NCBI GenBank assembly: GCA_965232535.1
Contig: CBDDPW010000021.1
Coordinates: 519,700-583,699 of the forward strand
Length of the DNA stretch: 64,000 nt
DNA from: Candidatus Poribacteria bacterium
Lineage (GTDB): Bacteria; Poribacteria; WGA-4E; JAJDTR01
Direction: 5' to 3'
Made by a program: the position numbers and the translations under genes. The notes under the pieces were generated by a model. The model worked only from the letters and a program-made list of their open reading frames with translations. It had not been told where the DNA came from and made no database searches. Below are positions 33,396 to 39,457 of the stretch, in pieces. Within the stretch, counting starts at the first letter, position 1. Each line of letters begins with the position of its first letter.

Positions 33396-34706
33396 GTGAA
33401 CCGGTTGTCCCGCAGTACTTTCTTCCCGCTTAAACCTTTGGAACATCTGCTGATTGCGATTGGAATCGTCGCGTCGTTGCTGCCTGCATCGTCGTTTGGC
33501 ACTGCTCAGGAAGCGACATCCACTTTATCGGGGCGCGTCCTTGACGTAGATGGAAATCCACTTTCCGGGCTCCCGATAGCTGTCCAGTATGTCGAGATAT
33601 CGCATAATGACGTGTGGCTAACCCATATTATGCTTGAGGAGGACGAACATGTCCTAGAAGCGTACGCTGCTTTGCCCAAATCGGCAACCGATGATCTGGG
33701 TCGGTTTTCTTTTTCAGATATTATACCTAGTCTCATCCAGTTCATCGCGCAACCTGCGCATTTGCCGCCTGAAGAGCCGCTATCGCCCGGCTTTGATTTG
33801 AAGATATTCAATCCGGACTCCGAGATACTGTCAATCAAACGCGGGGCGATAACCTTTTATCCATACTACCAAGAACCTCCTCCGTTCGGCGGTATCACGT
33901 TTGCCATTGAACCCGGGGCACACCTCCAAAATCTTGAGGTCACAGTAAGACCTCGGATGCGAATTCGCGCTCAAGTGGTTTTTTCCGACGGTACTCCGCT
34001 CCCCAACGCGGAAGTTCAGATTGATGTGCGGCGACGAGATTTCAATGGGAGCGGTTCCGGCAGTCGCAGTGGATTGCTCCGGACGGACGATGCGGGTTAT
34101 TTTGTGCACTATGTGAAGGAACCGGCGATTTACTCCGTTGCGGTCGAATTTCAAGGGCTTAGGGCAACTTCAAAGCGGTTCGCGCTTGAAGATGGCGAAC
34201 GACGCGAAGATTTGGTCATCACCCTTGACAGCGAGCCCGTGCCCGTGGAACCAACTCCTGAGCGGGAAGAACCGGAGCGCGAGGGAGAGTGGGTGCTGAA
34301 TCCCGCGAACGGGCACTCCTACAAGGTCATTCATTGCGAGGACCGGGAGGACGCTCAGGCGAAAGCGGTTAGCGAAAGGGCGCATTTGGTCTCAATCAAC
34401 GATTCGGCGGAGCAGAAATGGCTCGTGAGCATCTTTGGGAGCATACCCTATTGGATTGGTCTGACCGATGGAGACGAGGAGGGCGAGTGGCGCTGGATGA
34501 GCGGGGAAGCTGTCGGTTACACGAACTGGGCGCCGAATGAACCAATGGACGCGGAGTGGGGAGACGAGGATTATGTTTTTATGGGGTTGTCGCCGGATGG
34601 GAAGTGGTATGATGTTGGGCCCGGTAACCCGACGTGGCGGATGACCCAGATGGCTATCATCGAAAAGGGAGATTTGGCATTGGTGGCGCCGGAGGAGGGA
34701 GATTGA
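33396..34706 (+). CDS. secreted protein: carboxypeptidase-regulatory-like Ig domains plus C-terminal C-type lectin-like domain (paralog A)
   Basis: GTG start after GGAGG. Signal-like N-terminus. STLSGRVLDVDGNPLSG (CarboxypepD_reg-like). C-terminus AHLVSINDSAEQKWL..YWIGLTDGDEEGEWRWMSGEAVGYTNWAPNEP matches the CTLD core. Confidence 0.75.
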   Translation: MNRLSRSTFFPLKPLEHLLIAIGIVASLLPASSFGTAQEATSTLSGRVLDVDGNPLSGLPIAVQYVEISHNDVWLTHIMLEEDEHVLEAYAALPKSATDDLGRFSFSDIIPSLIQFIAQPAHLPPEEPLSPGFDLKIFNPDSEILSIKRGAITFYPYYQEPPPFGGITFAIEPGAHLQNLEVTVRPRMRIRAQVVFSDGTPLPNAEVQIDVRRRDFNGSGSGSRSGLLRTDDAGYFVHYVKEPAIYSVAVEFQGLRATSKRFALEDGERREDLVITLDSEPVPVEPTPEREEPEREGEWVLNPANGHSYKVIHCEDREDAQAKAVSERAHLVSINDSAEQKWLVSIFGSIPYWIGLTDGDEEGEWRWMSGEAVGYTNWAPNEPMDAEWGDEDYVFMGLSPDGKWYDVGPGNPTWRMTQMAIIEKGDLALVAPEEGD

Positions 34707-34788
34707 TTCGAGCCTAGTTAATTCGTGGGAAATCGGCAATCAATGATTGAAGGGTTTCGCCAAGCCAGAAAATGGAACCTCAAGAGCT

Positions 34789-35517
34789 AATGGTTTGCTT
34801 TCTAAGAACATAAGGTAGGCGTTGGTAGTTGACATTGTCTGAACTGTGATTCATGGGATTACCTTGATTGCTGGTGTCTAGTTATCCAGGGGTGAGCCGA
34901 GTAAACTGTACCTTGATGCCACCGGGATTTAGGGAAGAAACCAAGTTTTCAAGAAAAAACTTGGTTTCGATATGTGTTAAATACAAGTAGGAAGGTCGCG
35001 ACCTGGAGGTCGCTCCTACCGGCCGTTGGGTGGTGAAAGGCGGTTTACGGCACACGGAGTGTGCCTACTACTTTGAAATGATGCCATATTCTCTTGGCGA
35101 ATGAACCATTATTGGTTTACTTTTTAAGAACGTAAGGTGGGCGTTGGGTGTCGGTAGTTAATATTGTCTGAACTGTGATTCATGGGATTCTTGTGATTAC
35201 CTTGATTGCATGTGGCAAGTTCCCGGTGATGAGTCGGCTAGATCGTTATCTTGAGCGCACTAGGATTCAGGGAAGAAACCAAGTTTTCAAGAAAAAACTG
35301 GGGTTCGATATGTGTTAAATACAAGTAGGAAGGTCGCGACCGGGAGGTCGGTCCTACCGGCCGTTGGGTGGTGAAAGGCGGTTTACGGCACACGGAGTGT
35401 GCCTACTACTTTGAAATGATGCCATATAGACTTAGCGAGAAGACCATTATTGGTTTACTTTTTAAGAACGTATGGCAAGTGTTGGGTGTCGGTGCGGTTA
35501 GAAACCGCACCTACCGA
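34789..35517 (+). repeat. tandem composite repeat, about 2.1 copies (periods 322 and 338 bp), ending in a class B hairpin (35489-35517)
   Basis: The anchor tggttt(g/a)ct recurs at 34791, 35113 and 35451. Each copy carries module K, a class E hairpin (34937, 35275), class A' (34995, 35333) and class F (35049, 35387). Confidence 0.85.
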
Positions 35518-35642
35518 CATGGTAGAACGGTTTCTTGTGACAGTCTCGTAATCATTAGATACTTAGCGAGTAGGCCATTATGTTAAACAATTTCAAATAC
35601 GTGCAGTTTAGAATTCCTATTTTCCCACGAAGGGTTATCGAC

Positions 35643-37529: not shown

Positions 37530-37795
37530 CTGTAAGGGTAAAGACTGAGATGTGCGCCGGAATCAGTTACATTAGCCGCCAATTCAAAGTTCCAAGATTC
37601 GGGCTGAATCATGAGTTTCATTGCCGTATTAGACATTTGGCGGGAGGCGGTATTTCATTTGAGTTCCCTGCAGTAACCTTGAAAGTCTGATCTGCGATTT
37701 GGCGATTATAGTCATTCACAATTATATTTACACATATTATGATTGTATGCTACTCGATTTGATAGTTGAAGATTGCTACGACAAATCAACTACCT

Positions 37796-38154
37796 GTAGG
37801 AGCGAGCCTTGCCCAAGACAGGAGATCGCGACCGGGAGGTCGCTCCTACCGGGCGTTGGGTGTCGGTAGTTAATATTGTCTGAACTGTGATTCATGGGAT
37901 TCTTGTGATTACCTTGATTGCATGTGGCAAGTTGCCGGTGATGAGTCGGCTAGATCGTTATCTTGAGGTCACTAGGATTCAGGGAAGAAACCAAGTTTTC
38001 AAGAAAAAACTGGGTTTCGATATGTGTTAAATACAAGTAGGAAGGTCGCGACCGGGAGAAGATCTCTATCGTCATCCTTATTCTTTCGTTTGATTGCACT
38101 CTATAAGAAACTAGCTTGGTGTTGGGTTTCACTCTGTTCAACCCAACCTACAGG
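37796..38154 (+). repeat. mosaic: GTAGGAGCGA/TCGCTCCTAC inverted pair with class A' (37825-37850), a 208-bp copy of the tandem unit (37851-38058), class I (38059-38105), class D (38121-38154)
   Basis: 37851-38058 differs from 35139-35347 at about 4 positions by eye. Confidence 0.85.
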
Positions 38155-38197
38155 TTAATCGTCTCTCATAGCCAGTCACTAAACAGAGGGCTTTACC

Positions 38198-39457
38198 ATG
38201 AACCGTCGAAACTGCGCATTTGTACTCACAATTGCCGCCCTTCTACTCATGGTGCCGCAGCATGGAATTGTTGCCGAGGGTACGTCTACTTTATCCGGTC
38301 GTGTTGTCGATTCGGAAGGGCAGCCGGTTGCAGGATTCGGACTGATCCTTGAGCCGGTTCACGTTGAACCTAATCCCGTCGCAACAGTACCCGCGGAACG
38401 CGATGAGACTGTTGACGATTCAGCACGTCAATCGGACACCACGGCTTTTGCAACGCGCACCGACAAAACGGGCCGCTTCATCATCCGCAATTTCCCTCCG
38501 CAGAGGTTCCAATTAGCACCTTACACCAAGTCCGACCACGAGTCCGTGATGCACTACGAGATTGTGTCCATGAAAGTCGGGGCGATGACGGTGCATCAGC
38601 ACGAGCCGGCACCTTTTGGAGGAATCGTGTTTGCCATTGAACCGGACGCACATATTGAGAACGTTGAGATCAGAGTGAAGCCGCGGCAGCATGTTCGCGG
38701 CAGAATCGTGTTCGGCGATGGGACACCGCTAGCCAGTGGGAGGATAAGCATAAACGTACAACGTCGTTCTCCCGACGGAACGGGCAGCGGCAGCTCGAGT
38801 TCCTCCGACAAGACGGACGCCGACGGCTACTTTGTGTTCCACGCGGACGAAACGGCAATCTACACGGTAACCGTGAACCATCAAGGACTCTCGGCGACAG
38901 CCGAACCGTTTTTGTTGAATGAGGGAGAAAGTAAAGACGATTTGGTGTTCAGGTTCGACAGCGGGCCGATATCCTCGGATGCATCCGATGGTCGAATCGA
39001 AGTCTCCGCGAAGGCGTCGACATCATCAACCCCCGGCGACGAGGCAGCGTGGGTCGTGAATCCGACAACCGGGAATGCTTACAAGAAAATTCAATGCAGG
39101 AGTTGGGACGATGCGAACATTCAGGCTGTTGCCGAAGGTGCACATCTGGTTGCGATTAACGACGCGGCGGAGCAGAAATGGCTCTCGAAAATCTTTGGGC
39201 ATCGACCCTATTGGATCGGGTTGACCGATTATGCGACGGAGGGTGAATGGGCTTGGGAAAGCGGAGAGCCGGTGGTTTATACAAACTGGGCGACCCACGA
39301 ACCGCAGGATGACGAGTGGGGCGACGAAGATTTTGTCATCATGGATTTTTCCGGGCAATGGTCCGATGTTGGGCCCAACAGCGTAGAATGGCAAATGGTG
39401 CGATTGGCTATTATAGAAAGGGATGGCGTCACAACGATGCCGTTTGGGGAGAAGTGA
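38198..39457 (+). CDS. secreted protein: carboxypeptidase-regulatory-like domains plus C-terminal C-type lectin-like domain (paralog B)
   Basis: Same architecture as 33396-34706: STLSGRVVDSEGQPVAG; AHLVAINDAAEQKWL..YWIGLTDYATEGEWAWESGEPVVYTNWATHEP. Confidence 0.75.
   Translation: MNRRNCAFVLTIAALLLMVPQHGIVAEGTSTLSGRVVDSEGQPVAGFGLILEPVHVEPNPVATVPAERDETVDDSARQSDTTAFATRTDKTGRFIIRNFPPQRFQLAPYTKSDHESVMHYEIVSMKVGAMTVHQHEPAPFGGIVFAIEPDAHIENVEIRVKPRQHVRGRIVFGDGTPLASGRISINVQRRSPDGTGSGSSSSSDKTDADGYFVFHADETAIYTVTVNHQGLSATAEPFLLNEGESKDDLVFRFDSGPISSDASDGRIEVSAKASTSSTPGDEAAWVVNPTTGNAYKKIQCRSWDDANIQAVAEGAHLVAINDAAEQKWLSKIFGHRPYWIGLTDYATEGEWAWESGEPVVYTNWATHEPQDDEWGDEDFVIMDFSGQWSDVGPNSVEWQMVRLAIIERDGVTTMPFGEK

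Follow-up and report, generated by a model that had tools for sequence, protein, structure and literature searches.

Locus organization

Four genes on the forward strand of the window, the 64,000-nucleotide (nt) stretch of DNA analysed here, form a cluster in which two paralogues, named parA and parB, each ending in a C-type lectin-like domain (CTLD), bracket the gene for an exported WD40 protein and are followed by the gene for a TonB-dependent receptor. The source organism is a Candidatus Poribacteria metagenome-assembled genome (MAG), from a sponge-symbiont phylum. The first gene, parA (33396–34706), has a GTG start and encodes a 436-residue A-type protein, in which a leader, two beta-sandwich stalk domains and a Pro/Glu linker precede a cysteine-free CTLD with the triplets EPM and WYD. 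Its paralogue parB (38198–39457) encodes a 419-residue B-type protein consisting of a leader, two stalk domains, a Ser/Thr-rich linker and a cysteine-free CTLD that reads EPQ and WSD and has an intact acidic Ca2+ cluster. Both open reading frames (ORFs) had been placed correctly in an earlier model reading of the bare sequence (the first-pass annotation), and their products were 44% identical over the full length.

The gene between them occupies an ORF at 35580–37529. Translation most likely begins at ATG 35643 (MRILFALLSLFTISSLSASQE...) rather than at ATG 35580, giving a coding region of 35643–37529 and a product of 628 residues. Pfam assigned this protein to WD40 (PF00400, 350 bits) and to the WDR3, THOC3 and WDR5 propeller families, and 14 repeats were counted, as in a double seven-blade propeller. 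A signal-peptide-like N-terminus, MK/RIL...SSLSASQEFPQWGLPEG or ...SIAQTQDYSRVNLPDG..., was kept in orthologues of the CTLD-linked WD40 protein, and the earlier prediction of a secreted 14-blade protein was thereby strengthened.

Basic and hydrophobic N-terminal leaders of this kind, signal-peptide-like and of Sec type, were kept among orthologues. For parA, both the GTG start and the leader VNRLSR recurred in the orthologues with a correctly located start; a conserved AGGAGG Shine–Dalgarno sequence lies ~8 nt 5' of the GTG. In parA, parB, the WD40 protein and the scanned neighbours, we saw neither a lipobox nor a C-terminal sorting domain, and no gene for a secretion system.

Fold and origin of the C-terminal domains

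The first-pass annotation had read both C-terminal domains as CTLDs and had set the formylglycine-generating enzyme (FGE)/SUMF fold beforehand as the outcome that would count against this. Lectin_C (PF00059; curated gathering cut-off, 22.6 bits) matched residues 319–406 of parA at 43.2 bits and residues 302–391 of parB at 49.8 bits, with 46.5 and 52.6 bits, respectively, in a profile scan of the genome, while CarboxypepD_reg (PF13620; cut-off, 32.3 bits) matched at 35.9 and 49.6 bits. FGE-sulfatase (PF03781) gave no Pfam match at E ≤ 0.01 for either protein. Searching Protein Data Bank (PDB) sequences with the parA domain returned solely C-type lectin domains, including those of PLA2R, the mannose receptor and DEC-205, and the best single-domain match was to collectin placenta 1 (E = 4.7e-14).

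A full-length AlphaFold2 model of parB was mediocre, with a predicted local distance difference test (pLDDT) score of 65 and a long loop below 50, and comprised two beta-sandwich domains followed by the CTLD core; by Foldseek, the beta-sandwich domains resembled the stalk domains of SdrD and of pilins from Gram-positive bacteria. In its place, a CTLD-only model was made from a more diverse alignment of 41 poribacterial domains, and this reached a pLDDT of 91.4 and a predicted template-modelling (TM) score of 0.86. Foldseek superposed the CTLD-only model on the CD23, SRCL and ASGR1 domains with TM scores of 0.81–0.85 and a root-mean-square deviation (rmsd) of ~2.1 Å, and the range across the CD23, SRCL, ASGR1, SP-D and aggrecan CTLDs was 0.74–0.85, with an rmsd of ~2.1–2.6 Å. 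The top 50 PDB matches were all canonical CTLDs, one of them a type II antifreeze CTLD, and none was of FGE type.

Conservation was followed across 118 close homologues and 244 CTLDs from 75 poribacterial loci, using parB numbering. The WIGL motif and the core Trp residues (W328, W339-I-G-L, W353, W364 and W388) were invariant or nearly so in both sets, and the parB C-terminus was the best conserved stretch of the protein among the close homologues. The FGE-sulfatase/SUMF fold, with support from neither profile nor fold, was rejected because the CTLD-only model superposes on canonical CTLDs. From the profiles and this model, we regard the prediction that the C-terminal domains of parA and parB are canonical long-form CTLDs, members of PF00059, as certain.

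All four canonical CTLD cysteines were absent: C1 is Ala, C2 (the Cys of EDCV) is Tyr, Phe or His, the position near C3 is Pro or Thr (the alignment here being approximate), and the C4 strand reads AIIE. Neither of the two canonical disulfides (C1–C4 and C2–C3) therefore has its cysteines in parA or parB. The sole conserved cysteine, C300, lies at a non-canonical position ahead of helix 1. That these would be disulfide-poor CTLDs had been suggested for the two window proteins, and it extends to the 118 homologues and the 244 poribacterial domains.

Scanned with HMMER against 1.84 billion representative proteins, the parB CTLD had 19,103 relatives at E ≤ 0.001, of which 4,660 reached E ≤ 1e-10. 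Of the ten top-ranked matches that were looked up, those outside Poribacteria with the highest identity per domain (41–50%) were bacterial or unnamed metagenomic multi-CTLD proteins, for example from a Deltaproteobacteria MAG (MBM4275490.1, 49%), from Candidatus Magnetobacterium (KJU87798.1, annotated ‘secreted protein containing C-type lectin domain’, 44%) and in a giant protein of Verrucomicrobiales (MCP5528023.1, 41%); MRC1-like (mannose-receptor-like) proteins of amphioxus reached ~34%. The bacterial and metagenomic relatives have in common the hallmarks W..NP.NGH.YK, GAHLV.IND.AEQ.WL, ED[YF]V in place of EDCV and the ending AIIE. Because they share these cysteine-free hallmarks, the disulfide-poor CTLD would represent a wider bacterial subgroup of PF00059, of which the poribacterial branch has additionally lost EPN and WND; both motifs are still present in several relatives (MBM4275490.1 and two unnamed metagenome proteins). 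Missing disulfides would then be a mark of this bacterial subgroup and no ground for exclusion from the fold, since the nearest bacterial CTLDs are equally cysteine-free. The same comparison led us to reject recent transfer from an animal host, and the label ‘eukaryote-like’ that the cluster had been given proved overstated.

An A/B pair conserved across Poribacteria

The homologue search gave 547 matches, and all of those with a named source were from Candidatus Poribacteria, annotated as ‘lectin-like protein’ or ‘carboxypeptidase regulatory-like domain-containing protein’. When one genome from each of 185,579 prokaryote species was scanned for sequence patterns, 68 loci were confirmed, 67 in titled Poribacteria MAGs and one in an ‘uncultured bacterium’; the patterns were family-specific, so that the scan maps presence and does not prove absence elsewhere. 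Lectin_C genes occurred in 129 of 151 Poribacteria genomes and in 11 of 22 genera, at 1–22 copies per genome, and in none of 14 control genomes. The positive genomes were concentrated in three families of one order, and most genomes of other orders were without them.

Our own ORF and phmmer survey of 75 Poribacteria loci, together with the neighbourhoods of homologues, revealed a few recurring layouts, on one strand throughout. Writing W for the WD40 gene, T for the TonB receptor gene and sigmaA for an A-type gene fused to an extracytoplasmic function (ECF) sigma factor, these were A-W-B-T; A-B-W and repeats of it; sigmaA-B; and long arrays of distant paralogues, often holding one sigma-fused member. 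The A-W-B-T order of the window recurred in nine other loci, with B proteins 66–87% identical, and one further locus read A-B-T; A-B-W variants were found in more distant Poribacteria. The cluster is thus a conserved unit.

In a FastTree phylogeny of 247 ectodomains, A and B formed sister clades of 54 members each, with support of 91 (A) and 99 (B). First genes of pairs, among them all 12 sigma-fused proteins of the group, fell without exception in the A clade, and second genes in the B clade; the gene order was A then B in every A/B locus. Because first and second genes sort so completely, parA and parB constitute an ancient, co-inherited A/B pair. A recent local duplication of one into the other was ruled out by their 44% identity and by the two old sister clades, which span many genomes.

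A full-length WD40 gene was present in 24 of the 30 sigma-less A/B loci, with a fragment in three more, and in none of the 12 sigma-A loci. This alternation was significant by Fisher’s test (p = 1.7e-6), a value that is indicative only, the loci being phylogenetically related. The CTLD-linked WD40 proteins form an orthologous group of their own. About 130 stretches of the genome match the window’s WD40 protein at E ≤ 1e-20, and only one other full-length paralogue was found, at 49% identity. WD40-repeat genes were hugely expanded in tandem arrays in this genome, for example at C4:223000-251300, C4:290100-294500 and C10:212800-217500.

A putatively remodelled calcium site

The Ca2+-binding residues were mapped to rat mannose-binding protein A (MBP-A) by a hand alignment of motifs (WIGLTD, EPN, EDCV and WND), drawing on established knowledge rather than on a tool. 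We take the site-1 ligands D161, E165, N188 and D194 of MBP-A to be D344, E348, D371 and D378 in parB, and the site-2 ligands E185, E193 and D206 to be E368, E377 and D390; equivalents of all seven were present in both parA and parB. The counterpart of N187 is presumably Met in parA and Gln in parB, and that of N205 presumably Tyr and Ser, respectively. In C-type lectins, these two site-2 Asn residues link Ca2+ to sugar hydroxyls. Both were replaced here (EPM...E...WYD in parA; EPQ...E...WSD in parB, the triplets being as they were first read), leaving Ca2+ site 2 without its full set of five ligands.

This loss runs through nearly the whole family. EPN was kept in 3 of the 244 poribacterial CTLDs, and WND, like QPD at the aligned triplet, in none; in B-types, EPN had become EP[MKQT] and WND had become WSD. 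The acidic residues were held very differently in the two clades. In the B clade, D344, E348, E368, P369, D371 and E377 were present in 54/54 members and D378 and D390 in 53/54, while E368 was found in 26/54 members of the A clade (Lys in another 26) and D390 in 17/54. The simplest reading is that B would be the conserved metal- and ligand-binding subunit and A a more variable partner. One sigma-fused array member (L050:14148-16190) kept both EPN and the canonical EDCV cysteine and seems to preserve the site in its ancestral form.

Judged from these residues, Ca2+ binding by the parA and parB CTLDs is plausible, and classical Ca2+-dependent monosaccharide binding is doubtful. Lectin activity of the pair is doubtful, and the domains should not be classed as functional C-type lectins on present sequence evidence, because the residues that define the sugar site were checked and found to be replaced.

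Sigma-fused paralogues and cellular location

The genome holds four Lectin_C genes: parA, parB and a sigmaA-B pair on contig C18. This second CTLD locus (C18:127122-130678; L006:7123-10679, minus strand) encodes a 735-residue sigmaA fusion followed by a 423-residue free B-type protein. The fusion (L006:8472-10679) combines Sigma70_r2 (54.8 bits) and Sigma70_r4_2 (53.2 bits), one transmembrane helix, CarboxypepD_reg and Lectin_C; no sigma domain was matched by Pfam in parA or parB. The same ectodomain is joined, in 28 loci, to an ECF sigma factor and thereby held at the cytoplasmic membrane, so that the tethered ectodomain is predicted to lie in the periplasm. Upstream of the sigmaA genes lies an ECF-type promoter, GCATAAC-N17-GGTCTAA (..GGAAGAAC-N17-GGGTCTAA..), kept in 12 loci. 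The single similar site in the window, at 60427, precedes rpsP. Control of the cluster by the sigma-A paralogue was rejected, since this promoter is missing upstream of parA, the WD40 gene and parB.

Further membrane-tethered ECF sigma fusions adjoined sigmaA-B pairs (L015:213-3428, and the ‘sX’ genes in L016, L018, L025 and L026); one such fusion, of 1072 residues, consists of a sigma domain, five CarboxypepD_reg stalk domains and an AhpC/TSA (thioredoxin-like) outer domain. A single sigma-fusion chassis thus appears, from these domain orders, to have been re-used with different sensor heads.

That parA falls in the clade of the sigma-fused ectodomains and parB in that of their free partners, with a sigma-A plus B pair in the same genome on contig C18, would fit an explanation in which the A, B and W proteins of sigma-less loci serve only as soluble decoys or modulators of the sigma-fused sensors, whose signalling they would tune by presenting the shared ligand or competing for it. 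We consider this very unlikely. The sigma-less A-W-B(-T) layout is kept where B proteins are only 66% identical and has its own promoter, no shared ECF promoter was found, and the sites differ, in that parA keeps E368, E377 and D390 whereas the sigma-fused A of the same genome has lost the E377 and D390 equivalents.

The first-pass annotation had also placed the proteins at the surface, in contact with the host. This part of it was not upheld: the proteins have only Sec-type leaders, and the same ectodomain is inner-membrane-tethered, that is, periplasmic, in the 28 sigma-fused loci. Both points also weigh against a stronger version, in which A, B and W are all released from the cell as effectors or adhesins that bind sponge matrix glycans or host receptors and so keep the symbiont anchored within the mesohyl or assist its evasion of phagocytosis, as has been proposed for ankyrin, TPR and NHL proteins of sponge symbionts. 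The lack of a lipobox, a C-terminal sorting domain or an adjoining secretion-system gene among the sequences scanned, nearest relatives that are bacterial rather than animal CTLDs, and the lost sugar-site Asn residues count against it too. It draws some strength from a stalk-plus-tip build that recalls adhesins and pilins, from a strong expansion, with as many as 22 copies in a genome and with binding loops that vary, and from the confinement of the family to Poribacteria, a phylum dominated by sponge symbionts (PMC8546597), whose eukaryote-like proteins can change uptake by sponge cells (PMC13747020). On balance, secretion as host-interaction effectors seems to us unlikely.

Proposed coupling to a TonB-dependent receptor

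The receptor gene (39519–42003) encodes a Plug domain (77 bits) and a 22-strand barrel (105 bits). Its frame opens 75 nt after parB, and the spacer measured 65–75 nt in all related loci, the receptor lying directly 3' of B in 10 loci as well as in the window. Pfam found Plug and barrel only, with no STN signalling domain, and no NCBIfam subfamily scored above its cut-off, nor was there a SusC/RagA match. Orthologous receptors start MLKILVAL... at an ATG after AGGAGG. In the window, the corresponding ATG 39519 is out of frame by one base after ~7 codons, and the remaining start, TTG 39532, from which the frame is open, has a poor leader (39519–39545); this shift may reflect either a genuine frameshift or a mistake in the assembly. 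A small hairpin in the spacer (39469–39485, forward strand), whose sequence is kept in L001 and L002, might act in attenuation or processing. No Rfam family matched anywhere in the window, and a riboswitch or known RNA ahead of the receptor was accordingly rejected.

The first strong terminator-like hairpin (42186–42211, forward strand; 11 bp, 8 of them GC, with a T-run) appeared only past the receptor. Given this and the short, conserved spacer, co-transcription of parB with the receptor gene is plausible. In another Poribacteria genome (L074:10001-12792), all that stood ahead of the orthologous receptor was what is left of a B-type gene, a C-terminal remnant of 80 residues (85% identical).

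Such tight spacing of B and receptor, together with the CTLD fold and the intact acidic Ca2+ cluster of B, would also be expected of a nutritional glycan-capture system resembling a polysaccharide-utilization locus, in which B, with or without A, exchanges oligosaccharides with the TonB-dependent transporter and the WD40 protein serves as an accessory platform; Poribacteria have been reported as major carbohydrate degraders in sponges (PMC13200403). However, glycoside hydrolase, lyase, sulfatase and SusD-like genes are all absent from the cluster, the receptor has no SusC-type features or NCBIfam subfamily match and is missing at most A/B loci beyond the closest clade, and the EPN and WND sugar ligands are gone. 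We therefore hold glycan capture to be quite unlikely.

Promoters, repeats and neighbouring genes

A candidate sigma-70-like promoter of parA, TTGATT-17 nt-TAGAAT (33296–33324, forward strand), was picked out by a consensus scan and lies in a block kept upstream in 9 orthologous loci. Total counts from the promoter and terminator scans did not exceed the shuffled expectation, and conservation backs the parA promoter only.

The gaps on either side of the WD40 gene, 937 nt towards parA and 669 nt towards parB, are filled with repeats; the orthologous gaps measure 360–396 nt. A 208-nt element flanks the gene, its copies at 35139–35346 and 37851–38058 being 98% identical, and in the first gap dispersed-repeat insertions (34801–35493) have a tandem arrangement with a period of 338 nt and REP-like hairpins, outside the protein system. 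At least 15 long copies (74–92% identity) lie on six other contigs of the same genome. As these copies are dispersed, the element would be an intergenic repeat resembling a miniature inverted-repeat transposable element, and not locus-specific. Short GC-rich intergenic hairpin classes ending ...CCTAC, for example GTTGGGTTTCACTGCGTTCAACCCAACCTAC, occurred at 32676–32706, 32977–33010, 34984–35032, 35322–35370, 37814–37862, 38121–38154 and 42098–42128. They look like repetitive extragenic palindromes (REP type) and give rise to spurious ORFs, such as 32978–33433 and 38116–38352. The last 32 nt of the receptor gene recurred 147 nt downstream at 94% identity, with a REP-like hairpin between (41987–42165). 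The CTLD genes were rejected as targets of a diversity-generating retroelement, there being no template-like CTLD repeat within 11 kb and a conserved C-terminus; the neighbours that were scanned included no reverse transcriptase.

A PD40 propeller gene at 26617–27645, pointed out in the first-pass annotation as lying near the cluster, is real according to Pfam. It was excluded as a member of the module: a divergently oriented Lhr helicase gene lies between it and the cluster, and synteny comparison showed that it is absent from locus L002. For these two reasons, the PD40 gene is probably unrelated.

Discussion

We propose that the locus encodes a Poribacteria-specific, exported recognition module of the cell envelope, built on a CTLD A/B pair with a remodelled Ca2+ site, a WD40 partner and coupling to a TonB-dependent receptor; on the conservation and domain evidence above, we judge this reading to have roughly even chances. 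In such a module, A and B would act together through their stalk-held CTLD heads, perhaps forming a heteromer like other paired CTLDs. The periplasm would be the likeliest place of action, because the same A ectodomain is anchored in the inner membrane in the sigma-fused paralogues. B would serve as the Ca2+-dependent ligand-binding subunit and, with its site remodelled, its ligand need not be a simple sugar. At sigma-fused loci, sensing of the ligand could lead to transcription through release of the sigma factor, and at sigma-less loci this output may be replaced by the WD40 propeller, acting as a scaffold or as a binding partner. In this genus, the module might feed or monitor import by the adjacent TonB-dependent transporter. 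Our favoured guess for the ligand would be host- or matrix-derived glycans or glycoconjugates; the labels ‘lectin’ and ‘host interaction’ are interpretive.

Several observations weigh against the envelope-module proposal. The genes parA, WD40 and parB are not obviously one operon, judging from the long repeat-holding gaps and from parA’s own sigma-70-like promoter, and the abundance of WD40 genes in this genome lowers the weight of mere WD40 proximity. Physical interaction of A and B is something that we infer purely from their kept adjacency and equal clade sizes. The classical sugar site appears not to be intact, the equivalents of N187 and N205 being replaced. The TonB receptor adjoins only in the closest clade and, as the B-type remnant in L074 indicates, it can outlive the CTLD genes. 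The ECF-type promoter of the sigmaA genes was absent upstream of parA, the WD40 gene and parB, and no regulatory link between the genome’s two CTLD loci was found.

A more specific form, a phylum-specific extracytoplasmic receptor system, would make A and B an obligate CTLD heteromer that senses a host-derived ligand through a remodelled Ca2+ site of no longer lectin-like character and is plugged into one of two outputs, either a covalently attached ECF sigma factor (transcription) or the WD40 protein with or without the TonB receptor (capture or uptake). Taken as a whole, we think this improbable. Were it true, the WD40 protein would be the first exported bacterial WD40 protein with a defined partner.

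Canonical PF00059 C-type lectin domains are immune and adhesion modules of animals. Here, a sponge-symbiont phylum has cysteine-free CTLDs in fixed A/B pairs, wired to sigma factors or to exported WD40 propellers, and in the literature searched we found no paper describing CTLD proteins of Poribacteria or of sponge symbionts. Should the ligand come from the host, the pair would offer a testable molecular handle on how sponge symbionts sense or hold their host; if the pair is only a periplasmic housekeeping sensor, it would still be a clean case of a canonical CTLD re-used for bacterial signalling. Because the domain has no disulfides, it should express easily for binding studies.

Comparison with known systems

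Fused sigma sensors are the closest parallel to the second CTLD locus of this genome. IutY of Pseudomonas putida is a fused sigma/anti-sigma sensor (PMC5411451), and ECF52 SCO4117 of Streptomyces coelicolor has a carbohydrate-binding domain outside the membrane (PMC5826349). Like these, the A-type protein on contig C18 unites an ECF sigma factor, one transmembrane helix and an extracytoplasmic domain in one polypeptide; it differs in that its sensor is a stalked CTLD with a free paralogue and has no FecR-type anti-sigma domain. The window’s parA and parB, which have no sigma domain, fall outside this type. The window’s receptor differs from cell-surface signalling receptors of the FecA/IutA type in having no STN domain. 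The cluster is also not Sus-like, because SusD and degradative enzymes (hydrolase, lyase and sulfatase) are absent, and its receptor is without a SusC/RagA match.

The animal C-type lectin domains of CD23, SRCL/collectin placenta 1, ASGR1 and SP-D share PF00059 and the long-form fold with the poribacterial domains, at 26–33% identity, as well as the WIGL motif, the core Trp, the four acidic ligands of Ca2+ site 1, the Glu of EPN and the equivalents of E193 and D206. They differ from parA and parB, which are without the four canonical Cys, have EPM/EPQ and WYD/WSD in place of EPN and WND, and are mounted on CarboxypepD_reg stalks in a bacterium.

Diverged CTLD paralogues with a degenerate sugar site also form obligate pairs in animals, among them the snake-venom alpha/beta C-type lectin-like proteins and CD94/NKG2, and the ligands of paired animal CTLDs are often proteins rather than sugars. 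Those animal heterodimers have disulfides, in contrast to the poribacterial pair, for which we infer the contact of A with B.

The closest non-poribacterial relatives are the cysteine-free multi-CTLD proteins of other bacteria, which are 41–50% identical and have the hallmark motifs in common. These are giant proteins with 3–15 tandem CTLDs, several with EPN and WND, whereas the poribacterial proteins have lost both motifs and carry one CTLD on a two-domain stalk, in A/B pairs.

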